From Kangiella sp. (GTDB lineage Bacteria > Pseudomonadota > Gammaproteobacteria > Enterobacterales > Kangiellaceae), in assembly GCA_002733465.1 (NCBI GenBank), contig NVVT01000011.1, forward strand, positions 91,048-140,976: a DNA stretch of 49,929 bases, given 5' to 3'. This document shows, piece by piece, positions 19,908-31,185 of this stretch (positions within the stretch are counted from its first letter, which is position 1; the number at the start of each line of letters is the position of its first letter). The position numbers and the translations under genes were made by a program. The notes under the pieces are model-generated. The model was given only the letters and a program-made list of their open reading frames with translations. It was not told where the DNA came from and did not search any database.

Positions 19908-21137
19908 TTGGTTTATCTTAAAAAGTATTTTGAGTGTAGGTGTTTTATCAATGATGAATTAAAAGAGCTGTATCTTTGCGTTAGAAAAGAAAGTGAATCA
20001 ATTTCACAACCGCTTTCATCAGAAGATATGCAAATTCAATCAATGGCTGATGCGTCGCCTATAAAATGGCATTTGGCCCATACCTCTTGGGCTTTCGAAA
20101 CTTTTATCCTTAAAGATCAAATTAAGAACTATCAAGCCTTTGATGCAAATTTTGAATATTTTTTTAACTCCTATTACAATGCCATAGGAGAACAATTTCC
20201 TCGCGCCCAACGAGGTCTTCTAAGTCGCCCTAATAACCAAACAATTACCAAATATCGAAAGCATGTAGATATCGCTATGTGCGAACTTATAGAGAATTAT
20301 GAAAATTCGATTAGCAAAGAGACAATTAAATTAATCACTCTTCTGATTAACCATGAACAACAACACCAAGAACTAATGTTGACCGATCTAAAACATGCGT
20401 TGTTTCAAAATCCTACGTATCCAGAATATAAACCAAACTCTCGTTCTAGTCTTAGAAACCTATACATTGATCAACCGTTAACTTGGATAGAATTTGAAGC
20501 TGGTTTATATGACGTTGGCCATCAAGATGAGTCTTTTCACTTTGACAATGAAGGACCGCAACATAAATATTATCTTGAAAGTTTCAAATTAGCATCTCGG
20601 TTAGTTACCAATGGTGAATACCTAAAATTTATGGAAGATGGCGGTTATCAAGATGCAAAATATTGGCTGTCAGAAGCTTGGGGGTCTATCAAAGATAAAA
20701 AAAGTATGGCCCCTATGTATTGGATTAAAAAAGATAATAAATGGTTTCAATACACTCTTTTTGGATTGCAACCGTTAGACTTAAATAAGCCAGTACAACA
20801 TATAAACTATTTTGAAGCTAATGCGTATGCAACTAGCGTTAACAAAAGATTGCCAACAGAACAAGAATGGGAAGTTGCGGCTAAAAATGAACAATTCAAA
20901 TTGAACGAGATGTTTAACCATCTATGGCAATGGACATCGAGTAGCTATTGCGCCTATCCCGGTTTTAAAATTGTTAACGGCGCCATTGGAGAATATAACG
21001 GTAAGTTTATGGTCAATCAATATGTTTTACGTGGTGGCTCAAAAGCCACACCGCAAGGTCATATTAGGGCATCATACCGTAACTTTTTTTACCCTAATGC
21101 CTCTTGGCAATATACTGGATTAAGATTGGCGGAATAG
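19908..21137 (+). CDS. egtB: EgtB-type sulfoxide synthase (DinB_2 plus FGE-sulfatase domains), ergothioneine pathway
   Basis: The DinB-type iron motif is present (SPIKWHLAHTSWAFE...NHEQQHQE). The FGE-sulfatase-like C-terminal half includes VTNGEYLKFMEDGGY, WQWTSS and RGGS. There is no in-frame ATG near the N-terminus, so a TTG start at 19908 is assumed and is uncertain. Confidence 0.8.
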   Translation: MVYLKKYFECRCFINDELKELYLCVRKESESISQPLSSEDMQIQSMADASPIKWHLAHTSWAFETFILKDQIKNYQAFDANFEYFFNSYYNAIGEQFPRAQRGLLSRPNNQTITKYRKHVDIAMCELIENYENSISKETIKLITLLINHEQQHQELMLTDLKHALFQNPTYPEYKPNSRSSLRNLYIDQPLTWIEFEAGLYDVGHQDESFHFDNEGPQHKYYLESFKLASRLVTNGEYLKFMEDGGYQDAKYWLSEAWGSIKDKKSMAPMYWIKKDNKWFQYTLFGLQPLDLNKPVQHINYFEANAYATSVNKRLPTEQEWEVAAKNEQFKLNEMFNHLWQWTSSSYCAYPGFKIVNGAIGEYNGKFMVNQYVLRGGSKATPQGHIRASYRNFFYPNASWQYTGLRLAE

Positions 21138-21170
21138 CTTTTATATTTAGAATGTATTGGAGAGAATGCA

Positions 21171-22169
21171 ATGGACGACAACTATTTATATTCAAATAGC
21201 GCTGAACAAGATTATTTCATTAACAGCGGAAGTAATACGACTAATGAAGTTGATGAAATATTTCTTCAAGATGTTATTGAAGGATTAAGCCATTCTCAAA
21301 AATCACTGCCATGTAAATATTTTTACGACGAAACAGGATCTCGGTTATTCGAACAAATTTGTCAACTTGATGAATATTATATTACTCGAACTGAATTAGA
21401 ACTTCTAGAGAATATAAAACAAGAGCTTGCAAATGAAATTGGCGAAAATGCAGTAATCATTGAACCCGGTGCAGGCGCTGGAAAAAAAATACAAATATTA
21501 CTTCATGCATTAGAATCGCCACAGACGTATGTACCAATGGACATCTCAAAAGATTTTCTTTTTTATAGCGCCAAGGTCATTCAAGAAAATTTTCGCAATA
21601 TAGAAGTTTCTCCTATTCAAGGTGATTTTACTAAGCCTATAAAATGGTTAGATAAGAATAGTGACAATCGAATTGTATTCTTCCCAGGTTCAACTATTGG
21701 GAATTTTGAAGCAGAATTGGCAGTCAGTTTTCTACAAAATATGAAAGCTCTTATGGGTAAAAAAGGCTCAATGATTATAGGCGTTGATCGAATAAAAGAT
21801 CGACAAACTTTAGTTAATGCTTATGATGATTCATCAGGCATAACCTCAGACTTTAATAAAAATCTACTTGTACGTATTAATCGAGAACTAAATGGCAATT
21901 TTAATTTAAATGCCTTTCAGCATAGTGCTATTTTTAATGAAGTTGATTCAAGAATAGAAATGCATTTAATTAGTACAATACAACAAGATGTTAGGATAAA
22001 TGGACATGTTATAAGATTTCAAAAAGATGAAGCCATTCATACCGAAAACTCTCATAAATATTCAGATAAAAGCTTTATAAAACTTGTTTCCAAAGCCGGT
22101 CTAAAATCAGTTAAATATTGGGTTGATAGTAAAAATTTATTTAACATTTACTATTTGGTACCTGAATAA
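21171..22169 (+). CDS. egtD: EgtD-type L-histidine N-alpha-methyltransferase
   Basis: KYFYDETGSRLFEQICQLDEYYITRTELELL and EPGAGAGKK are the Methyltransf_33/EgtD signature. The gene starts 33 nt after egtB. Confidence 0.85.
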   Translation: MDDNYLYSNSAEQDYFINSGSNTTNEVDEIFLQDVIEGLSHSQKSLPCKYFYDETGSRLFEQICQLDEYYITRTELELLENIKQELANEIGENAVIIEPGAGAGKKIQILLHALESPQTYVPMDISKDFLFYSAKVIQENFRNIEVSPIQGDFTKPIKWLDKNSDNRIVFFPGSTIGNFEAELAVSFLQNMKALMGKKGSMIIGVDRIKDRQTLVNAYDDSSGITSDFNKNLLVRINRELNGNFNLNAFQHSAIFNEVDSRIEMHLISTIQQDVRINGHVIRFQKDEAIHTENSHKYSDKSFIKLVSKAGLKSVKYWVDSKNLFNIYYLVPE

Positions 22170-22960
22170 TTATAAAAATTAGCAATCTCACGCCACATAA
22201 CTGTCGGATTTGCATACATTGGAAAATGACCACAATCGGGTATTTCAGACAATCTAACACCTTTCGATTCAATATCTTCTAAATAGGAAAGTGATTTGTT
22301 TTGCTCTCCATACATAAACATTTTAGGGCAAGCTAAGCTTAAAAACTTATTCATCAAATTTCCATTATCCGATAATTCTACCATTGATTTGAAAATGGTA
22401 GGTACGGCTTTGGCTCTCACTTTATGGCGTAAACTGGCAGAATATAAAGGGCTTGAATAAGCTGGCGAATTTAAAGTTCGTTGAATAAAGTTTTCAAAAA
22501 AATCATCCGCATTATCTGCAGGGTGCTCAACAATTTGCCGACTTAAAAAGCAATCTTCTGGGGCGATATTACCCTCAATATCAATAAAACTAAGAACTCT
22601 TTCAGGGCAGTGATCCGCTAACATTAACGCAGTTAATCCGCCCATTGAATGTCCAACTAAATGAAAACGATCGATATTTTCTTTATCTAACATCGCTAGC
22701 GCTGTTTTCAATAAAAAAGGAATGGATACTTTTTCTAGATTTGTACAGGTTGTTTCTCCACAACCAGGAGCATCATAAGCAAAAAATGGATATTCTTTGA
22801 GGCTACTCTGTCTAATAATGTCAGCGTAGTCTTCTTTTGTGGAACCAAAACCATGTAAGAAAACGATCGGGGGTAGCGAGCCTTTACGCGAAATAGCTGA
22901 TACATTTAATTGGATACCATCAACTTCTATTTCGGTATTAAATTTCTTAAATTCGTTCAT
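22151..22960 (-). CDS. Alpha/beta-fold hydrolase, last gene of the RraA-like operon
   Basis: It has the oxyanion HGFGS and the nucleophile elbow GHSMGG, with a C-terminal CGH. Its 3-prime end overlaps the egtD 3-prime end by 19 nt in convergent orientation. Confidence 0.8.
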   Translation of the reverse strand: MNEFKKFNTEIEVDGIQLNVSAISRKGSLPPIVFLHGFGSTKEDYADIIRQSSLKEYPFFAYDAPGCGETTCTNLEKVSIPFLLKTALAMLDKENIDRFHLVGHSMGGLTALMLADHCPERVLSFIDIEGNIAPEDCFLSRQIVEHPADNADDFFENFIQRTLNSPAYSSPLYSASLRHKVRAKAVPTIFKSMVELSDNGNLMNKFLSLACPKMFMYGEQNKSLSYLEDIESKGVRLSEIPDCGHFPMYANPTVMWREIANFYNYSGTK

Positions 22961-22978
22961 GTTATTTCATTCCCAATT

Positions 22979-24211
22979 CTAATCCGTCAAAGATTCACAA
23001 AACACTTCTATTTTTTCGCACGCTACTCGTAAAGAATCATCATCTAAAGCATAGGCAATGCGAAGATATGGGCCTAGACCAAAAGCACTGCCATGCACCA
23101 CGGCGACATTCATTTCTTCTAGCAATGCACTAGCAACATCTTTATCGCTTTGTAAGTGTTTTCCAGCGTTGGTTTTTTTACCTAATAACGCTGAACAATC
23201 TGCGAAAATATAAAAAGCGCCTGAAGGGCTTTCACAGCTCAATCCTGAAATATTATTTAATGTTTTTACTAATCGATCACGGCGTTTAACAAAAACATTT
23301 CTTGACTGCTCAAGGAAGTCCTTATCTCCTTGTAAAGCTGCCAATGCGGCATGCTGAGCAATTGAACATGCTCCAGAAGTTTGTTGCCCTTGCAGTTTAA
23401 TCATTGCATCTATTAACCATTGCGGACCAATACCAAAACCAATTCGCCAACCAGTCATCGCATAGGCTTTAGAAACACCATTCATGGTTAAAATTCTATT
23501 TTGTAAATCAGGTGCTACTTGAGCCAAAGTATAAAACTCTAAATCATCAAAAATAAGATGCTCGTAAATGTCATCGGAAAGAACCATAACATGTTCATGT
23601 TTTCGCAAACAATCGGCTAATGCTTCAAGTTCATTTTTTGTATAAACGGCGCCAGTCGGATTAGACGGCGAATTAAGAATCAACCACTTTGTCTTATTAG
23701 TAATAGCCTTGTTTAATGCGTCAGCAGTAATTTTAAAACCGCTCGAATGGTCACATGAAGTAATCACAGGCTTACCGCCACAAACTTCCACCATTTCAGG
23801 ATAGCTCACCCAGAATGGCGCAGGTATTATAACTTCATCATTCTCATTTAGAGTTGCCGCTAATGCATTAAATAAAACTTGCTTTCCGCCCGTACAAACA
23901 ATTGTTTGCTGCCAGTGACAGTCTATATTATTTTCATCGTTGAATTTTTTTGCAACCGCTTGCCTTAGCTCTTTTAATCCTGCGACTTGGGTGTAACGGG
24001 TAAACCCTGCTTGTATAGCTTGAATAGCCGCTGCGGAAATATGCTCTGGTGTATCAAAATCGGGTTCGCCCGCACAGAGTGAAATTATAGTTTCACCCGC
24101 TGCTCTTTTTTCAGCGACTCTATCTATCACTTTGTAAGTTGCAGATGGTTGTGAGCGTTCTAAAAATCGGTTTAATACATTTGTATTAGTCTTACTCACT
24201 TCTCTCTCCAT
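22979..24211 (-). CDS. Class I PLP-dependent (aspartate-type) aminotransferase
   Basis: The motifs are LCAGEPDF, NSPSNPTG and SKAYAMTGWRIG (PLP lysine). Confidence 0.9.
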   Translation of the reverse strand: MEREVSKTNTNVLNRFLERSQPSATYKVIDRVAEKRAAGETIISLCAGEPDFDTPEHISAAAIQAIQAGFTRYTQVAGLKELRQAVAKKFNDENNIDCHWQQTIVCTGGKQVLFNALAATLNENDEVIIPAPFWVSYPEMVEVCGGKPVITSCDHSSGFKITADALNKAITNKTKWLILNSPSNPTGAVYTKNELEALADCLRKHEHVMVLSDDIYEHLIFDDLEFYTLAQVAPDLQNRILTMNGVSKAYAMTGWRIGFGIGPQWLIDAMIKLQGQQTSGACSIAQHAALAALQGDKDFLEQSRNVFVKRRDRLVKTLNNISGLSCESPSGAFYIFADCSALLGKKTNAGKHLQSDKDVASALLEEMNVAVVHGSAFGLGPYLRIAYALDDDSLRVACEKIEVFCESLTD

Positions 24212-24828
24212 TCTAATAAATCCATCAACTCTAAGGTTGTTTTTCCTGTGCTCAATTGCTTCATCATGATCGCTTCTTTCTCTTCACGTGCTTTACCTTT
24301 TTGAATAATGTCTAACGCGATATTTTTTGGTAATACAACTACACCATCATCGTCAGCGATCACTAAGTCGCCCAACTGAACTGGGGTACCCGTTATTTGG
24401 ATAGAATCACCGACTGAGTTATAACTCGCTTTTTCTGTACCACAAACCGAAATACCCCGGCTAAAAACAGGGAATTTTCTTTGCCTTAGAGCCACAATAT
24501 CTCGTACGCCACCGTCAATAACCAACCCTTTTATTCCCGAATATTGAGCGGCTACTGTGAGCACTTCCCCCCAATAACCAGCAACAAAATCATCAGTCGT
24601 TACTACCATAACACTGCCCGCCGGTGCTTTTTCTAAAGCAATTTGAATCGCTAAATTATCCCCAGGTGTACATGCCACTGGATAGGCCGGACCCGATAAA
24701 ATAGCCCCTTGCCAAACGGCTGTTATTTCTCTATCTAAAGCACAATTTTTAATATTGGATGCCTCATAGAGTGTTGATGTACCAAGCGTTTTAGCGAGTT
24801 CTAATTCAGTTTCGGTATAAATAGCCAT
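24196..24828 (-). CDS. RraA / class II HMG-CHA aldolase-like family protein, paralog A
   Basis: It shows the RraA fold signature GPAYPV...YWGEVLTVAAQYSGIKGLVIDGGVRD...DDDGVVVLP. It overlaps the aminotransferase start by 16 nt. Confidence 0.8.
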   Translation of the reverse strand: MAIYTETELELAKTLGTSTLYEASNIKNCALDREITAVWQGAILSGPAYPVACTPGDNLAIQIALEKAPAGSVMVVTTDDFVAGYWGEVLTVAAQYSGIKGLVIDGGVRDIVALRQRKFPVFSRGISVCGTEKASYNSVGDSIQITGTPVQLGDLVIADDDGVVVLPKNIALDIIQKGKAREEKEAIMMKQLSTGKTTLELMDLLEWREK

Positions 24829-25503
24829 TTATCCTTTCCTTTGCAAGGTATGATAATTCATTTTTTCTCTTGCTTGTTTAATACTATCGCCAGCCTTTAT
24901 TCGCTCTCGTATAGCCTCTTCAACGGTTTCAATTTCATGTGCGATTTTGGCAACTTCTTGCGCAAATTTTCTTGGGACAACTACCACGCCATTTGCATCT
25001 GCTATCACGATATCTTGATCTTCCACTCTCACGTTACCAATATTTACGGTGCCATTAACTGAGTCAACTTCTACTCTATCTTTACCGGTCCTCATCGAAC
25101 GTCCTGCAGTAAATAATTTGTAATCATCTCCAATAGCTTTATTGACGTCTCGACATACACCATCTATCACTGTTCCCGCAATTTTTTTAATGCCTGCATA
25201 TTGAGTTAAAATATCCCCCCAAACCGTGCAGTCAAGGCGACCGTCATTATCTATTACAACAATGTCGCCCGTTTTAACATCATCTATATAATCGCCTACC
25301 GTTCCAGCGGGGATCCCAGCAGAGACATACTTAACTGTAAATGCAGGGCCAACAATCACTTCGGTATAATCTTTTAATGGCATGATCCCTAACGTTTGCC
25401 CACAAATCCCCATTTTATCTAAAGCATCGGATACACCCGGTGTATCCAATCCTTTAAATAATTCGACTAATGATTTATTTTCTATTTCTTGCTTTTGATT
25501 CAT
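24829..25503 (-). CDS. RraA / class II HMG-CHA aldolase-like family protein, paralog B
   Basis: It shows GPAFTVKY...VWGDILTQYAGIKKIAGTVIDGVCRD...DANGVVVVP. Its stop abuts the paralog A start (TAAATG). Confidence 0.8.
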   Translation of the reverse strand: MNQKQEIENKSLVELFKGLDTPGVSDALDKMGICGQTLGIMPLKDYTEVIVGPAFTVKYVSAGIPAGTVGDYIDDVKTGDIVVIDNDGRLDCTVWGDILTQYAGIKKIAGTVIDGVCRDVNKAIGDDYKLFTAGRSMRTGKDRVEVDSVNGTVNIGNVRVEDQDIVIADANGVVVVPRKFAQEVAKIAHEIETVEEAIRERIKAGDSIKQAREKMNYHTLQRKG

Positions 25504-25557
25504 TCTGTTATTCTCGCTTTTTTAGTCTTTTAGATTCGATCAACTAGAGCAAAATTT

Positions 25558-26235
25558 TTAGCTATTATTAATCGCTTCAAATTGTTTATCGTGCATCACT
25601 TCGGCTACGGATTTTCCAGAACGAACCGCTTCAACCATTCCATTTTGCCGAGTATCTATTCTTTCGGCTAATTCAATCACAGCATCTATTTCAGAAGCCG
25701 GAATAAAAACCGTTCCGCAACCATCTGCAATCACATAATCATCTTCATTAACGGTAATTCCCGCAAACTGAAGCGGACACGCGGAATCTAATTGGATCAC
25801 CCGATTTCGCGCGCTGATCATGGTTATTCCTTTGCCATACAACGGATAGTCTATTGATTCACTGCCATCAATATCTCGACTGCATCCATCAATCACCGTG
25901 CCTTGAATGTTTTTTTGTTTTGCTGCGTTAGCTAAAATATCTCCCCAACAAGAAACACCATCTGTACCACCGGCAATCACTAATATTCTATCGTGACTAC
26001 TTTCATTCACCGCGTCGATCACCGGCGAAATTAAATGCACTGTAGGTTTTTCAGTTTGTTTTGGACCAAGTTTTACAGTACTTGCTCTACCAACAATTTT
26101 TTTGCAATTCCACAAAGGCCTCACGCCAAAAGTTGCACCGTCTAACTCTAAAAAATCTAGCGCATCAGAAATAGTATTGGTGTCTAGGTTGGCTAATCGA
26201 GTTAATCTAGTTGATAAGTTCGAGTTGTTTGTCAT
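25558..26235 (-). CDS. RraA / class II HMG-CHA aldolase-like family protein, paralog C
   Basis: It shows GRASTVKL...CWGDILANAAKQKNIQGTVIDGCSRD...DGCGTVFIP. Confidence 0.8.
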   Translation of the reverse strand: MTNNSNLSTRLTRLANLDTNTISDALDFLELDGATFGVRPLWNCKKIVGRASTVKLGPKQTEKPTVHLISPVIDAVNESSHDRILVIAGGTDGVSCWGDILANAAKQKNIQGTVIDGCSRDIDGSESIDYPLYGKGITMISARNRVIQLDSACPLQFAGITVNEDDYVIADGCGTVFIPASEIDAVIELAERIDTRQNGMVEAVRSGKSVAEVMHDKQFEAINNS

Positions 26236-26261
26236 GTTGATAACTTCCGATTGGATATAAT

Positions 26262-27728
26262 TTATTGAAAACTAGAATCAGTTTCATGTTCAACTTGAGG
26301 ATCTATTTCGACCGCTGGCCACGCCTTACGATCAATATCAAGATCCTTAAAATCATCAGGATTAAATATTGGCCGATCAATACCTTTCTTTAACTGTTGG
26401 CGAAAATCATTAAGCACTCGAAGGCAAGTTGGGAGTAACATCATGATGACTAATAAATTGACCAAAGCTAAAACGCCCATCATGGGATCTGCAAAGAAGA
26501 ATATCGCGGTAGCGCCCGGAGCCGTCGCTCCAATAAAAACGATCGCAATAATCACTGCACGCAAAACATTTAATGCGATAGGATTTTTGGTTATAAATGA
26601 CAAGGCGTTTTCACCTAAATAATAGTTATAAATGATGGAACTGAATGAAAAAAGCAAAAGCATAAAAGATAAAAAATATTGAGTCCATTCGCCCAGGTGG
26701 GAAACTAGCGATTGTTGTGTTAATACAACGCCATCAATAGCTTCTGCACCTGGCTCATAAACATCCCCTAGCAAAACCACAAATGCGGTGCAAGAACAAA
26801 CCAACATAGTATCTATAAAAACAGAAAAAGACTGCGTGATCCCCTGACTGATTGGATGTTTTACATCAGCAGTTGCCGCCACATTGGGAGCCGATCCAAG
26901 CCCCGCCTCATTAGAAAATAATCCACGGCTTAAACCGTTAGAAATGGCAGCCCCCATTCCTCCACTGACCGCTTCTTCAAAACCAAACGCATTAGATATT
27001 ATCGAACTGAAAACGGCAGGCACTTCACTAATATTGAGTAGAATGACCACAAGCGCCATTAGGATGTAACTGATTGCCATAACCGGAACGATGATATCTG
27101 CGATCTTAGAAATTCGCTGTATACCTCCGAAGACGATGAAACCGGCAATTATCGCTAATAGGCTACCACTTACTAATCGGCTAATTCCCATGCTATCGTT
27201 TAATGCCCCTGCGACCGTATTACCTTGAAAGGCATTAAAGCCTATTCCAAAAGCTGCGATCAAACACACGGCATAAACAATCGCCAACCATCGATAATTT
27301 TCGCCAAGTCCATGCAAGATTGAACGTGCTGGACCGCCACGAAACGAGCCATCAGATTGTCGTCTTTTGTAAACTTGTGCGAGAGAACTCTCAACTAAAC
27401 TAGTTGCCATGCCAACCAGTGCAATCGCCCACATCCAAAAAACAGCACCTGGGCCACCCAGTGTAATTGCAACGGCTACACCGGCAATATTGCCCCCGCC
27501 AACTCGACCACCAACAGAAATGATTAATGCCGCTCTTGCCGAAAGGGTATTCGGATCATTGCTTTGATTATTGGAAGACATAACGCGGAACATTCGTTTG
27601 AAAAATTCAATTTGAACAAAACCCGAAAGCAACGTAATGAAACAACCAAAAACCACTAGGAGCGGAATTAAAGAGTGCCCCCAAGTTAGATCGCCGATTA
27701 TTCTGAAGATATTTTCAATTGTTTGCAT
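26262..27728 (-). CDS. Alanine/glycine:cation symporter (AGCS) family amino-acid carrier
   Basis: It is 488 aa and polytopic, with the motifs GGPGAVFWMW and GLFSNEAGLGSAP that are characteristic of sodium:alanine symporters. Confidence 0.85.
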   Translation of the reverse strand: MQTIENIFRIIGDLTWGHSLIPLLVVFGCFITLLSGFVQIEFFKRMFRVMSSNNQSNDPNTLSARAALIISVGGRVGGGNIAGVAVAITLGGPGAVFWMWAIALVGMATSLVESSLAQVYKRRQSDGSFRGGPARSILHGLGENYRWLAIVYAVCLIAAFGIGFNAFQGNTVAGALNDSMGISRLVSGSLLAIIAGFIVFGGIQRISKIADIIVPVMAISYILMALVVILLNISEVPAVFSSIISNAFGFEEAVSGGMGAAISNGLSRGLFSNEAGLGSAPNVAATADVKHPISQGITQSFSVFIDTMLVCSCTAFVVLLGDVYEPGAEAIDGVVLTQQSLVSHLGEWTQYFLSFMLLLFSFSSIIYNYYLGENALSFITKNPIALNVLRAVIIAIVFIGATAPGATAIFFFADPMMGVLALVNLLVIMMLLPTCLRVLNDFRQQLKKGIDRPIFNPDDFKDLDIDRKAWPAVEIDPQVEHETDSSFQ

Positions 27729-27830
27729 AGGTTATTCCACTGGCAAGTTTTCAATATTTAAGATGCAGTAAAAGCTTACCCATTATGAAATAATTTCGCT
27801 GATATTTAAATTTGTTATAACTTAACCCTG

Positions 27831-27849
27831 TGATACTATTTTCATATCA
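27831..27849. promoter_or_regulatory. Candidate LysR-type (T-N11-A) dyad in the divergent intergenic region
   Basis: TGATA-N9-TATCA contains a T-N11-A core. It lies between the AGCS operon start (27728) and the lysR-type gene start (27864). Confidence 0.3.
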
Positions 27850-27863
27850 GTAATTTAAGAGAT

Positions 27864-28766
27864 ATGCTCATGAGCACGATTAATTTTCGACTTGTTAAGC
27901 AATTGTGGATGTTTTTAGCGGTTGCGGAAGAACTGCACTTTGGCAGAGCCGCAGCACGATTAGGTATGTCTCAACCGCCATTAACTGAGCAAATCAAGGT
28001 ACTCGAGGCCTCATTATCAATGACTTTGTTTGAACGATCTCGGCGCGGCACTAAACTAACGCCTGCAGGCGCAGCGATTCTTCCGGCAGTAAAACAGTTT
28101 TCTAGGCAAGTAGAAAATCTAGAGAAGATTGTTAGAGAAGTTGCCAGAGGTCAAACCGGGGTATTGCAGGTAGGTGCCATTACTTCAGCGATGTTAGAAA
28201 CCGTTCCCCCCTTGCTGAATAAGCTTAAACAAAGATTTCCAGAATTAACGGTTTTTGTACAAGAAATTGACAGCGTAGAAGCAATACCGGCGCTAGAAAA
28301 TGGCGAACTTGATATTGCTTTTGTTCGGTTAGATGGCGAAACAAAATCAGGAATTGAAACGCTTAATTTAACGGAAGATCGATTAGCGGTGGCATTACCG
28401 ATTAGCCATCCTTTAGCCACACATACGGAAATTGCTATTGCTAAACTAGAACCAGAACAAATTGTAATGTCTTCCCGAAAGGTAAGTCCTATCTATTTTG
28501 ATATGTTAGTTTCCGCCTGTCGAAAACATGGTTTTAGTCCACGAATTTTGCATGAAGTGCGATCCATATCTTCTCAAATCGCGTATGTTAGTTGTGGGCA
28601 AGGCGTGGCATTAGTTCCCAAAGGGGTTGAGAAACTTACACCTCAAAATGTGGTGGTTAAACCGTTAAAGGAGAAAATTATGATTGTTACTTCGGCGATG
28701 GCGTGGAATAGCAACCGATATCATCCTTTGATTTCTACGGTTCGAGAGTTATTAGCTGGAGACTAG
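27864..28766 (+). CDS. LysR-family transcriptional regulator, divergent from the AGCS/RraA-like operon
   Basis: The N-terminal wHTH (FLAVAEELHFGRAAARLGMSQPPLTEQIKVLE) is followed by a periplasmic-binding-like effector domain. Confidence 0.9.
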   Translation: MLMSTINFRLVKQLWMFLAVAEELHFGRAAARLGMSQPPLTEQIKVLEASLSMTLFERSRRGTKLTPAGAAILPAVKQFSRQVENLEKIVREVARGQTGVLQVGAITSAMLETVPPLLNKLKQRFPELTVFVQEIDSVEAIPALENGELDIAFVRLDGETKSGIETLNLTEDRLAVALPISHPLATHTEIAIAKLEPEQIVMSSRKVSPIYFDMLVSACRKHGFSPRILHEVRSISSQIAYVSCGQGVALVPKGVEKLTPQNVVVKPLKEKIMIVTSAMAWNSNRYHPLISTVRELLAGD

Positions 28767-28939: not shown

Positions 28940-29329
28940 TTAACCCTCAGTTAATAACTCTAATGATTTTACTTTAAATACCATTGTATAAGTCAAACCT
29001 TTCTGAGACTTATTTTTTTCAAACTTCCATTTATATATTGCTCTTCTTGCATCTCTTTCAAATACTCGACGAGGCTCAGCATTAGTTAATTCAACATTAT
29101 ATGGTTGACCGAGTTCATCAACGTCAAACTTGAATTTCACCCATCCTTCTATTTTCTCCATAGCCGCTTTTCTTGGGTAACGAGGTTGTTCAACAATGGT
29201 CGGAACTGCATCTTTTAGAATGCCATAATTCTCCGCCATCACCACACCATTAGTTAACCAAATCGCACTCAAAGAAAAAATAATCGCTATCCATTTATGC
29301 CACGCTTTTGTATTAGTATTTTTTAACAT
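28940..29329 (-). CDS. Stand-alone TM-anchored TonB C-terminal-like domain protein, surviving part of a duplicated M56-TonB_C gene
   Basis: MLKNTNTKAWHKWIAIIFSLSAIWLTNGVVMAE... matches the C-terminal 130 aa of the neighbouring 404-aa protein (MLKNTNTKAWHKWVAIIFSVSAIWMTNGVVMAE...). A GGAG/GAG Shine-Dalgarno-like sequence lies upstream of the ATG. Confidence 0.5.
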   Translation of the reverse strand: MLKNTNTKAWHKWIAIIFSLSAIWLTNGVVMAENYGILKDAVPTIVEQPRYPRKAAMEKIEGWVKFKFDVDELGQPYNVELTNAEPRRVFERDARRAIYKWKFEKNKSQKGLTYTMVFKVKSLELLTEG

Positions 29330-29570
29330 TTTTACTCGCTCCTTAATTAACTAATGATACTTCCACTGTCTTATCAGTTTGTTTTGACTTCCACAAGAAG
29401 CCATTTCAACTAAGGCTTTCGTTTACTGTTTTTTAACAAAAGCCTCCATTTAGGATGACACACTACCATTAAAAATTCGATTAACAAAATATCGACCGTA
29501 CTATCAATAGGATTTCCTCGTTCAGTGATGGAAAAATTGGAATATTGTCCTTATTGATTATAATCAAGCT
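29330..29570 (-). pseudogene. Decayed blaI-blaR1 remnant: a blaR1 fragment fused to the 3-prime half of a blaI fragment by an internal deletion
   Basis: By hand alignment, 29330-29432 aligns with 29995-30100 of the intact M56 gene. 29433-29570 aligns with about 30890-31030 of the intact blaI-like gene, for example aaaagcctccatttaggatgacacactaccattaaaaattcgattaacaaaa versus aaaagctgccactaaggatgaaacactgccattgaaaacacgattgacaaaa. No long ORF remains. Confidence 0.65.
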
Positions 29571-29573
29571 ACA

Positions 29574-29608
29574 AGCCAACGTGCTGAATTGATATTGCTT
29601 CGTTGGCT
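29574..29608 (-). terminator. Hairpin just downstream of the intact M56-TonB_C gene
   Basis: AGCCAACG-N19-CGTTGGCT forms an 8-bp stem 11 nt after the stop codon. The loop is long and the U-tract is weak. Confidence 0.3.
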
Positions 29609-29618
29609 CCTTATGAAA

Positions 29619-30833
29619 CTATTCTAACGCATACTCCATTGTATAAATCATATTACTCTGCCCTTTGTTATTTTCAAACTGCCATTGATAGACAGCCGTT
29701 AATGCAACTTGATCAAATATCCCTTTAGGTTCCGACTTAATAACATCTACGTTATAGGTACGCCCAAAATTATCGATATCAAACTTTATTTTAACTTCAC
29801 CTGCGATCCCGTCCATTGCCGCTTGTCTTGGGTATTTAGACATCACAAATTTAGTCGCCACTTTTGTAATATCATCAAATGAATTGTCTGGTGCGGACTT
29901 TTCCGCCATCACCACCCCATTAGTCATCCAAATAGCACTTACAGAAAAAATAATCGCTACCCATTTGTGCCATGCTTTTGTATTAGTGTTTTTTAACATT
30001 TTTACTCGCTCCTTTATTAACGAATGATATTTCCACTGGCTAACCAGTTTATTTTGACTTCCGAATGAAGCCGACTCTATTAAGGCTTTTGCATACTGTG
30101 TTCTTTCTTCCTTAGGTGAGCCTTGTAAAACACCTAAATCGCAAGAAATTTCTTGATCCGCTTCGCAATATTTATCAGCAATAAAAATTAGCGGATTGAA
30201 CCAAAATAGACTCTTGATCAACAGCCTAACGATATTAATCCGGTGATCATGACGAGCAATATGAAATAACTCATGTCTAAGAATCATGGTTTGGTTCGCT
30301 TTTGAAAATTCCGAAAACTCTTTCGGTAAAATCATATTGGAACGAAACAAACCATATATCGCGGGTACGTCAACCACGGTACTATTAACAACATTTATTT
30401 CAGATAGTTTAGTGAAATTCATGTCCAACCTTTCATTTGAAAACTCATGGCAAGACAAAGAAAGATTAAGTTTTCTAAATTTTAAAACATGTAATGAAAT
30501 GCTAGCTAAAAATCCGAACAGCCAAATCGTTAAAATCCCACTTCGAATCAAATCACTTTCAAAAAATTGTTCACTAATTTGGTGAGGATTTAGAGGATTA
30601 GCTCCGAGAATAATGGTTATCACCGAGGAAGAACTTTCACCACTCATTATGTTGATTGGCAAAAGTAAAAATACGGGTACAATCAACCACATACCGTAGG
30701 AAACACTGGCGTTAAGATACCTTAAAACGAAAGGTCGAATCACCATTAAGATAATCACTAAAAGACTAACGCCTATGACTTTATTGAGTAGAATTTCAAA
30801 AACAGATTCGATTAAACTATCAATCATTTTCAA
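29619..30833 (-). CDS. BlaR1/MecR1-type M56 family membrane metalloprotease fused to a TonB C-terminal-like domain (no penicillin-binding sensor domain)
   Basis: It has N-terminal TM helices and the HEXXH motif (HELFHIARHD). A further TM helix is followed by a C-terminal TonB_C-like domain (YPRQAAMDGIAGEVKIKFDIDNFGRTYNVDV). It overlaps the upstream blaI-like gene by 14 nt. Confidence 0.85.
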   Translation of the reverse strand: MKMIDSLIESVFEILLNKVIGVSLLVIILMVIRPFVLRYLNASVSYGMWLIVPVFLLLPINIMSGESSSSVITIILGANPLNPHQISEQFFESDLIRSGILTIWLFGFLASISLHVLKFRKLNLSLSCHEFSNERLDMNFTKLSEINVVNSTVVDVPAIYGLFRSNMILPKEFSEFSKANQTMILRHELFHIARHDHRINIVRLLIKSLFWFNPLIFIADKYCEADQEISCDLGVLQGSPKEERTQYAKALIESASFGSQNKLVSQWKYHSLIKERVKMLKNTNTKAWHKWVAIIFSVSAIWMTNGVVMAEKSAPDNSFDDITKVATKFVMSKYPRQAAMDGIAGEVKIKFDIDNFGRTYNVDVIKSEPKGIFDQVALTAVYQWQFENNKGQSNMIYTMEYALE

Positions 30834-31185
30834 TCTCCTTGATTAATTGTTTCAACTCTGACAGCTCATGTTCCGATAACTTTTCCTTTTTTGCAAAAGC
30901 TGCCACTAAGGATGAAACACTGCCATTGAAAACACGATTGACAAAACTGTCAGTGGCATTTTCAATATAGTCTTCACGTTCAAGTAATGGAAAATAGAGA
31001 TATTCCCGACCCTGTTTATTAAAACTAATCGCTTCCTTTTTTAGCAATCGATTAATAAGACTCTTAGCCGTTTTGTCCGCCCAGTTAAGAGCAGGATCTA
31101 AGTTTTCAATAATTTGTTTGGCGGTTTTTGGAGATGAATTCCAGAGACTATCCATTATTAATTTTTCTGAATCACTTATTTGCAT
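30820..31185 (-). CDS. BlaI/MecI/CopY-family winged-helix transcriptional repressor
   Basis: MQISDSEKLIMDSLWNSSPKTAKQIIENL...REYLYFPLL. It is 121 aa and is followed directly by an M56 protease gene. Confidence 0.85.
   Translation of the reverse strand: MQISDSEKLIMDSLWNSSPKTAKQIIENLDPALNWADKTAKSLINRLLKKEAISFNKQGREYLYFPLLEREDYIENATDSFVNRVFNGSVSSLVAAFAKKEKLSEHELSELKQLIKEIEND

Follow-up and report, generated by a model that had tools for sequence, protein, structure and literature searches.

What do three divergent RraA-like proteins do when their genes stand side by side in one bacterial operon? The question is raised by a 49,929-nucleotide stretch of Kangiella sp. DNA (contig NVVT01000011.1; hereafter the window), in which six minus-strand genes, encoding an AGCS-family carrier, the RraA-like paralogs C, B and A, an aminotransferase and an alpha/beta hydrolase, form a real, tightly packed operon beside a divergent gene for a LysR-type regulator. 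The comparisons reported here point to three paralogs that are not equivalent and that would make up a C-B pair plus a separate, dispensable aldolase, A. We consider it fairly probable that the operon is a LysR-controlled, horizontally spread catabolic unit for an aspartate- or glutamate-like amino acid, which would be processed by a C-B lyase and then by A to pyruvate.

We compared the three proteins with profile families and with solved structures. All of them matched the RraA-like superfamily profile PF03737 (124, 111 and 110 bits for A, B and C, respectively, against a cutoff of 24.5; profile positions 1-152; E-values from 1e-31 to 1e-36), and their translations carry the motifs VIDGGVRD, VIDGVCRD and VIDGCSRD. 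None of the three reached an NCBIfam equivalog cutoff. For the HMG/CHA aldolases, A scored 141 bits against 304.5 (TIGR02798) and 155 against 179 (NF006731), the latter a near miss (155 against 179 is likewise the score with PRK09262); B scored 65 and 68 bits and C 62 and 55 bits with TIGR02798 and NF006731, both below cutoff. That these proteins are RNase E regulators like true RraA, and not enzymes, is suggested by the shared Pfam family and by the name used in many databases, and we give this idea almost no probability. A, B and C scored 39-46 bits with the RraA equivalog NF006875 against a cutoff of 136; they are 210-225 residues long, as compared to 161-174 for the RraA chains in the PDB, and have a C-terminal helix bearing position 199, unlike the RraA chains of ~161 residues; and their catalytic residues are invariant and their operon context is metabolic.

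To locate those residues we aligned 24 orthologues of A, 47 of B and 44 of C with the PDB entries 3NOJ and 3K4I, and we number positions as in 3NOJ. In HMG/CHA aldolase Arg123 is essential for enolate stabilization, Asp124 and Glu199 are the acidic metal-binding residues, and the pocket is lined by Asn71, His75, Gly101, Gly144, Thr145, Lys147 and Arg195 (PMC5065237). Arg123 and Asp124 were invariant in all three families, and together with Glu199 they were found in every orthologue of A (24/24) and B (47/47) but not in C. The best PDB match of A was 3NOJ, the HMG/CHA aldolase of P. putida (E 1.7e-28, ~34% identity), and its orthologues had invariant Asn71, Gly101, Arg123, Asp124, Gly144, Thr145, Lys147, Arg195 and Glu199. 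His75 was kept in 20 of the 24 (the window's own A has Gln at this position), and Glu replaced Asp102 in all 24. At the family level only A had the set of pocket residues Asn71, His75, Gly144, Thr145, Lys147 and Arg195, and its Ralstonia orthologue is named CHA aldolase/oxaloacetate decarboxylase by PGAP. A probably belongs to the LigK/HMG-CHA aldolases as a divergent representative, and it would be expected to act as a Mg-dependent pyruvate aldolase and oxaloacetate decarboxylase. The known enzymes of this group (LigK, GalC and ProA, of the protocatechuate 4,5-cleavage and gallate pathways) share their fold and invariant active-site residues with A (PMC5065237), while differing from it in overall sequence, in Asp102 and in the equivalog scores given above. 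They also differ in context, since the cluster has an aminotransferase and an amino-acid carrier in place of genes for ring cleavage, a hydratase (LigJ/GalB) or a lactonase (LigI); we found no LigI/LigJ or GalB/GalD genes in the window or in ~90 related loci.

B and C both had 3K4I as their best PDB match (E 2e-42 and 41% identity for B; E 3e-26 and 32% identity for C). This structural-genomics RraA-like protein, PSPTO_3204, is the closest solved relative of the two, and by sequence B and C belong to a 3K4I-like branch that has no characterized member to guide the mechanism. In B, Asp102, Arg123, Asp124 and Glu199 were invariant in the 47 orthologues, and positions 144-147 read G-K-D-R as against G-T-V-K, giving a more basic pocket; two further positions, 140 and 143, were invariably Arg, in the window's B as in the others. 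At positions 71, 75, 144, 145, 147 and 195, B has V/T, T, G, K, R and I and C has D, T, A, R, R and I, so both differ from the HMG/CHA aldolase pocket. The pocket of 3K4I, with A-K-N-R at 144-147, is similar to those of B and C. C kept Asp102, Arg123 and Asp124, but Glu199 was changed to Gln in 44 of 44 orthologues as well as in the C domain of the fungal proteins described below. Glu199 was retained in every other relative examined, namely A, B, 3NOJ, 3K4I, the Flavobacterium enzyme FlDet and a Pseudomonas subtype D. In 3NOJ this residue presumably reaches into the site of the neighboring subunit; if so, C with Gln199 could not complete a neighboring active site in a homo-oligomer, and the substitution fits a role as a partner. 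The original prediction had proposed an alignment of the catalytic residues as a check; in it the Arg-Asp pair is invariant in all three paralogs and Glu199 is lost in C.

We then examined the distribution of the cluster. When one genome per species was scanned, a close relative of B turned up in at least 549 of them. The seven window proteins were mapped onto the 80 best loci, and the 69 loci that had at least 4 kb on both sides were counted, a gene being scored as present when it lay within 6 kb of B. The module, with the LysR gene divergent from C-B-A-aminotransferase-hydrolase, occurred at 55-78% identity in alpha-, beta- and gamma-proteobacteria. The same order was found in an Enterobacterales metagenome-assembled genome, the Burkholderia cepacia complex and S. 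fredii, and the module recurred in Ralstonia, Vibrio, Klebsiella and Agrobacterium. B was 65-78% identical across the proteobacteria (~70% in Burkholderia, Ralstonia, Cupriavidus, Pandoraea, Sinorhizobium and others). The full set was present in 34 of the 69 loci, A in 44, aminotransferase orthologues (64-76% identity) in 51 and hydrolase orthologues in 40, and a LysR orthologue (57-78% identity) was divergent beside the cluster in 56. Variant loci had C-B-aminotransferase without A, C-B or C-B-A without the aminotransferase, or the hydrolase on the other side of the LysR gene, and in Ralstonia A followed the aminotransferase (C-B-aminotransferase-A). The neighborhood is therefore strongly conserved, and the triple array, which had been called unusual, is found in many proteobacteria. 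The view that the paralogs are only distantly similar and stem from an ancient duplication agrees with our data, since A, B and C are 22-30% identical in pairs while the orthologues of any one of them, which form a family of their own, reach 55-78% across the classes of proteobacteria.

The most constant feature of these loci was the pairing of C with B. C lay directly upstream of B in 57 of the 69 loci and within 6 kb of it in 62. When loci were sampled around C instead (Klebsiella, Agrobacterium and a metagenomic contig), C was directly followed by B in 3 of 3, and neither sampling ever found C without B close by. Pseudomonas also has a second module, consisting of a LysR gene, an RraA-like gene 'D', an MFS transporter gene and a second copy of B that is ~70% identical to the window's B and has no C nearby (loci L071, 13651-16640; L074, 7675-10650; L032, 6744-10650). 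D is of the aldolase type, is 30% identical to 3NOJ and has Glu102, Asn71, Lys147 and Glu199; this module often lies 6 kb or less from the main cluster.

A further form of the pair was found in fungi. Database homologues of B with 376-386 residues turned out to be truncated gene calls of full-length proteins in which C, a linker and B are joined in frame. This C-B fusion of ~457 residues occurs in many ascomycetes, including Fusarium, Aspergillus niger and A. oryzae, Penicillium, Botrytis cinerea (BCIN_01g01420), Lasiodiplodia, Talaromyces and Clonostachys (fungal loci compared: L086, 5785-7161; L087, 1737-3101; L091 and L092, 10001-11374). The fusions were 62-69% identical to the window's C and B, and the B part alone 62-67%. 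In Botrytis the fusion gene is clustered with genes for a Zn-cluster regulator, two MFS transporters, a hydrolase orthologue (55% identity), an aminotransferase and an HpcH/HpaI aldolase, and in A. niger with those for an HpcH/HpaI aldolase and a hydrolase; hydrolase orthologues beside fungal fusions were 52-56% identical to the bacterial protein. The Botrytis aminotransferase is a class Ia aspartate aminotransferase that is not orthologous to the bacterial one, and in both fungi the unrelated class II HpcH/HpaI aldolase stands in place of A. One Thozetella gene model joins C-B to an HpcH/HpaI domain. Since the fungal clusters keep C, B and the hydrolase next to a non-orthologous aminotransferase and aldolase, these three form the co-inherited core, and their identity of 52-69% with the window proteins suggests that this core module moved between kingdoms by horizontal transfer.

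These observations bear on the possibility that A, B and C assemble into one hetero-trimeric or hetero-hexameric enzyme, which we regard as highly unlikely. RraA-fold enzymes are trimers or hexamers whose active sites use a residue of the neighboring subunit, the window has the three genes side by side and closely coupled, and C without Glu199 would need a partner. However, A is missing from 25 of the 69 loci that keep B, follows the aminotransferase in Ralstonia, lies outside the fungal fusion, where it is replaced as described, and has a complete LigK-like site of its own. The original prediction had offered a hetero-oligomer or three sequential activities; our comparisons speak for the C-B pair, fused in fungi, and do not favor an oligomer of all three or three equivalent enzymes.

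The surroundings of some clusters are worth recording. In Ralstonia solanacearum the cluster lies on a megaplasmid beside a type III effector gene and toxin-antitoxin genes, and in Agrobacterium pusense (L094, 250-5915) it adjoins genes of a conjugative element (ParA, DUF2840, signal-peptidase-like, DUF736, SLT and DUF3363). The G+C content of the window operon is 0.41, as compared to 0.34-0.37 in its flanks. The megaplasmids, the element resembling an integrative and conjugative element and the G+C shift are consistent with a mobile module. Orthologues of B and C are entered in databases as 'diguanylate cyclase', 'dimethylmenaquinone methyltransferase MenG', 'regulator of RNase E activity', 'Protein DlpA' or '4-hydroxy-2-oxoglutarate aldolase', and none of these names is supported by the present analysis. 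No paper on the cluster came to light in a literature search that ranged over the RraA-like family, its older names, host organisms, fungi and possible substrates; an Azospira paper on RraA concerns a different RraA gene.

In the window itself, direct reading of the sequence agreed with the original prediction in coordinates, gene order, motifs and junctions (Table 1). The stop codon of B is followed immediately by the start of A (TAAATG), and A overlaps the aminotransferase gene by 16 nt; the gaps are 26 nt from the carrier gene to C, 54 nt from C to B and 18 nt from the aminotransferase to the hydrolase gene. The C-B gap contains three in-frame stops, which rules out a readthrough C-B fusion in the window. 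We found no convincing internal terminator in the operon, terminator-like matches being weak and no commoner than in shuffled sequence. The regulator has both domains of a LysR-type protein. In the control region two palindromes, ATTAT-N3-ATAAT (27782-27794) and TGATA-N9-TATCA (27831-27849), are candidate LysR boxes, and a weak sigma-70-like match lies on the minus strand at 27810-27782. In beta-proteobacteria the region between the LysR gene and C (loci L002-L017 and others) contains the palindrome GTATC-N5-GATAC followed by ATTTACATA, an arrangement present in 20 of 52 orthologous control regions, and this palindrome is probably the LysR operator in those loci. As a conserved operator for the window it was rejected, being shared by the beta-proteobacteria and absent from the window.

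Table 1. The operon, its control region and its regulator gene, with positions in the window
Feature	Position	Strand	Basis
Alpha/beta-fold serine hydrolase, last operon gene	22151-22960	-	Pfam Abhydrolase_1 + Abhydrolase_6; GHSMGG nucleophile elbow
Class Ib aspartate-aminotransferase-like pyridoxal phosphate (PLP) enzyme	22979-24211	-	Pfam Aminotran_1_2, 287 bits
RraA-like paralog A, HMG/CHA-aldolase-like; probable class II pyruvate aldolase / oxaloacetate decarboxylase	24196-24828	-	Best PDB match 3NOJ
RraA-like paralog B, probable catalytic subunit of a C-B lyase	24829-25503	-	Pfam RraA-like; 3K4I-like subfamily
RraA-like paralog C, putative partner subunit of B	25558-26235	-	Pfam RraA-like; 3K4I-like subfamily
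AGCS-family amino-acid carrier (alanine/glycine:cation symporter type), first operon gene	26262-27728	-	Pfam Na_Ala_symp, 481 bits
Divergent control region, two perfect palindromes	27729-27863	.	Read from sequence
LysR-type transcriptional regulator, divergent from operon	27864-28766	+	Pfam HTH_1 + LysR_substrate

We next considered what the other operon genes say about the substrate. The aminotransferase is a near relative of the class Ib aspartate aminotransferases: its best PDB match was S. meliloti AatA (6F77, 485 bits), and it scored 531 bits with the NCBIfam aspartate transaminase PRK06107 against a cutoff of 617. This slot is filled by a class Ib enzyme in most bacteria, by class Ia in Botrytis and by class Ic in Agrobacterium, where the enzyme passes the NCBIfam equivalog cutoff (577 vs 435 bits), and the recruitment of three independent aspartate-aminotransferase lineages to the same slot supports an acidic substrate. 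In Cupriavidus the aminotransferase is replaced by a PALP enzyme of the serine/aspartate-racemase or dehydratase type. The hydrolase is an alpha/beta serine hydrolase (76 bits with Abhydrolase_1, with the elbow motif in its translation). The carrier matched TIGR00835 (agcS) over residues 16-442 of 488, with 445 bits against a cutoff of 272.65, and belongs to the AGCS family. An AGCS gene was found in 2 of the 69 loci; the closest relative of the window cluster (L001/L006) has one at 82% identity, and a Pseudomonas cluster (L039) has a copy at 47% identity. Other loci have polar-amino-acid ABC, TctC-type binding protein or MFS transporters instead.

Several clusters have further enzymes as neighbors. 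In two separate lineages (L002, 3324-6056; L095, 3721-4849) the cluster adjoins genes for a two-subunit thiamine pyrophosphate (TPP) enzyme of the sulfopyruvate/phosphonopyruvate decarboxylase family, which scores below equivalog cutoffs and has a LysR gene of its own; it is accompanied by an aldehyde dehydrogenase in Burkholderia and by a TctC protein in the metagenomic locus. Genes resembling an itaconate or methylsuccinate-type CoA pathway (acyl-CoA dehydrogenase, family III CoA-transferase, MaoC/Htd2-type hydratase and HpcH/HpaI-type lyase) flank the cluster in Burkholderia (L002, 1-1197) and Sinorhizobium (L004, 1-2894). The cluster of Klebsiella pneumoniae (L093, 4343-8810) has no alpha/beta hydrolase and is convergent with a 5-oxoprolinase-like set (LamB_YcsF, CT_A_B and CT_C_D) plus biotin carboxylase and biotin carboxyl carrier protein; this set may be a lactam-opening alternative to the hydrolase, or a coincidence.

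The same genes could be read as an ordinary aspartate or asparagine route, in which transamination gives oxaloacetate, the RraA-like proteins are redundant oxaloacetate decarboxylases and the hydrolase is an amidase or esterase. The three aspartate-aminotransferase lineages would suit this route, oxaloacetate decarboxylation is known for HMG/CHA aldolase (NCBIfam names; PMC5065237), and the split sulfopyruvate/phosphonopyruvate-type decarboxylase found beside the cluster in two lineages belongs to a family that acts on oxaloacetate analogues. However, oxaloacetate as a central metabolite needs no inducible operon with two or three distinct conserved lyases, the pockets of B and C differ sharply from the LigK pocket, arguing for a different substrate, and the co-inherited hydrolase is left unexplained. 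We consider this route quite improbable.

The reading that we prefer is a catabolic pathway with a C-B lyase. The AGCS carrier would import an amino acid resembling aspartate or glutamate, the hydrolase would act on an ester, amide or lactone function, removing or opening it at a point before or after transamination, and the aspartate-aminotransferase-type enzyme would turn the amino acid into its 2-oxoacid. C and B would form one hetero-oligomeric, Mg-dependent lyase of the RraA fold, in which B supplies the complete active sites and C is a partly degenerate partner with its Glu199 changed to Gln. This lyase would catalyze a second enolate-type step, which might be a hydration or a dehydration at C4, a beta-decarboxylation or some related cleavage, after which A, or the HpcH/HpaI enzyme in fungi, would carry out an aldol cleavage or an oxaloacetate-type decarboxylation to yield pyruvate and a small central metabolite. 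The comparisons show directly the content, order and packing of the genes, their families, the conservation of the module and of its residues, the fungal C-B fusion and the analogous replacements of A and the aminotransferase; from these we infer the complex in bacteria, the C-B reaction, what the hydrolase does and at which point, the direction of the pathway and the class of its substrate. The divergent LysR gene and the interchangeable uptake systems (AGCS, polar-amino-acid ABC, TctC and MFS) suggest its catabolic character. The sequence of import, transamination and aldol cleavage or decarboxylation had been proposed at the outset, and its general logic is supported by the varied transporters, the three aspartate-aminotransferase lineages and the replacement of the aldolase in fungi; the hydrolase, which had been placed at the flank, belongs to the core.

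Known systems offer parallels to parts of this scheme. In mammals, the end of the hydroxyproline pathway converts 4-hydroxyglutamate by aspartate aminotransferase to 4-hydroxy-2-oxoglutarate, which the aldolase HOGA1 splits into pyruvate and glyoxylate. The likeness lies in an aspartate aminotransferase that makes a 4-hydroxy-2-oxoacid and an aldolase that splits it; HOGA1, however, is a class I aldolase of another fold, and nothing in that pathway corresponds to C-B or the hydrolase. The lower meta-cleavage and homoprotocatechuate pathways are alike in that a class II pyruvate aldolase (HpaI, BphI) splits a 2-oxoacid which a hydrolase and a hydratase or decarboxylase have prepared, and the aldolase of the fungal clusters is a member of the HpcH/HpaI family. 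They differ in that entry here would be an amino acid via transamination and not an aromatic ring-cleavage product, and the middle step is of the RraA fold here and of the FAH fold there. A precedent for non-aldolase chemistry in the RraA fold is FlDet of Flavobacterium sp. UMI-01, a 2-keto-3-deoxy-hexarate dehydratase/decarboxylase that performs C4 elimination and decarboxylation on a 2-oxoacid (PMC8563752). FlDet keeps Asp102, Arg123, Asp124 and Glu199 and differs in its pocket and in its context of alginate catabolism. As a close relative of B and C it was rejected, since it is 24-29% identical to A, B and C alike.

Speculative candidates for the substrate are 4-substituted glutamates and their amides (4-methyleneglutamine, 4-methyleneglutamate, 4-hydroxy-4-methylglutamate and 4-hydroxyglutamate), whose oxoacids are, or lead to, substrates of HMG-type aldolases; beta-substituted aspartate analogues are a second, equally speculative class. 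As a lead only, 4-methyleneglutamine is reported from xylem sap and from a Pseudomonas culture in a paper of 2026 that names no genes (PMC12958779). We tentatively suggest, as a possibility that falls short of being probable, that C-B is an unrecognized RraA-fold lyase, with two subunits in bacteria and a single chain in fungi, whose reaction is new to the family and has as its substrate an oxoacid derived from an acidic non-protein amino acid, and which together with the hydrolase makes up an uncharacterized catabolic pathway exchanged between proteobacteria and ascomycetes. Candidate reactions would then be the hydration of 4-methylene-2-oxoglutarate to HMG or the cleavage or decarboxylation of a beta-substituted oxaloacetate analogue. 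The pathway might also run in the other direction, with pyruvate condensed to a carbonyl partner and the product modified and transaminated to an exported non-protein amino acid. Both class II aldolases and aminotransferases can run in reverse, a Zn-cluster regulator and MFS transporters are found in the fungal clusters just as in biosynthetic ones, and the occurrence of 4-methyleneglutamine in Pseudomonas culture would agree with its synthesis. We see very little likelihood in such a biosynthetic role, since uptake dependent on periplasmic binding proteins (ABC, TctC) is linked to the cluster in several bacteria, compact operons next to a divergent LysR gene are usually catabolic, and there are no tailoring or ligase genes.

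Several points weigh against the catabolic scheme with a C-B lyase. Copies of B without a nearby C occur in Pseudomonas and Methylobacterium and show no diagnostic sequence differences from C-associated B, which suggests that B is probably able to work alone. We had considered these copies as a separate subfamily and rejected the idea, there being no diagnostic columns and an identity of 77% between the groups as compared to 81% within them. A fusion can reflect the coupling of a pathway and is no proof of shared active sites, and the AlphaFold2 model of the Botrytis fusion, two RraA-like domains with a disordered linker, is of moderate confidence (pLDDT 75.8, pTM 0.67). Aspartate-type aminotransferases all bind glutamate/2-oxoglutarate as co-substrate, which makes the argument for an acidic substrate weaker. 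The substrates for which AGCS carriers are best known are small neutral amino acids. No relative of the hydrolase is informative, its matches to esterases, MenH and PcaD being weak and its best equivalog score 75 bits against a cutoff of 307, so that an esterase, lactonase or amidase type is a guess. Finally, we infer co-transcription of the six genes from their spacing only.

Some of these points would also suit three independent homo-oligomeric enzymes acting in sequence or in parallel, with no C-B complex in bacteria and a fungal fusion that reflects pathway coupling. Arg123, Asp124 and the acidic residue at position 102 (Asp or Glu) are invariant in all three paralogs, B stands alone in some genomes, and C and B are separated in the window by 54 nt with in-frame stops. 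We nevertheless consider this explanation unlikely, since C uniformly has Gln at position 199, where every enzymatically characterized relative examined keeps the second metal-binding acid, since C was never seen apart from B, and since two subunits whose fold is obligately oligomeric must associate physically in fungi, being fused there.

The operon is bordered in the window by two further gene sets. On one side (19908-22169, plus strand), a gene for an EgtB-like protein of 409 residues with an FGE-sulfatase domain adjoins that for an EgtD-like histidine-specific S-adenosylmethionine methyltransferase (Methyltransf_33, 359 bits), which suggests an ergothioneine-type biosynthesis pair. The EgtD-like gene is convergent with the hydrolase gene, their 3' ends overlapping by 19 nt, and the pair is not kept beside the cluster in other genomes. 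On the other side (28940-31185, minus strand) are genes for a BlaI-type repressor (Penicillinase_R) and a BlaR1-type M56 sensor with a C-terminal TonB_C domain. A separate TonB_C open reading frame of 129 residues (28940-29329) follows the sensor; its first ~33 residues nearly repeat a sensor segment (MLKNTNTKAWHKW...), as if the C-terminal module of the sensor had been duplicated in part.

The module is present in hundreds of environmentally and agriculturally important organisms, among them Ralstonia solanacearum, the Burkholderia cepacia complex, fluorescent pseudomonads, rhizobia, Klebsiella, Fusarium, Botrytis and Aspergillus niger, where it goes under misleading names (RNase E regulator, demethylmenaquinone methyltransferase, diguanylate cyclase, DlpA). 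The comparisons narrow the problem to a few proteins and classes of substrate that can be tested. Once the substrate is identified, the RraA/class II aldolase fold would gain a new reaction and its first heteromeric architecture, the passage of a catabolic module from bacteria to fungi would be documented, and a nutrient, probably derived from plants or algae, would be revealed for which the carriers of this module compete.

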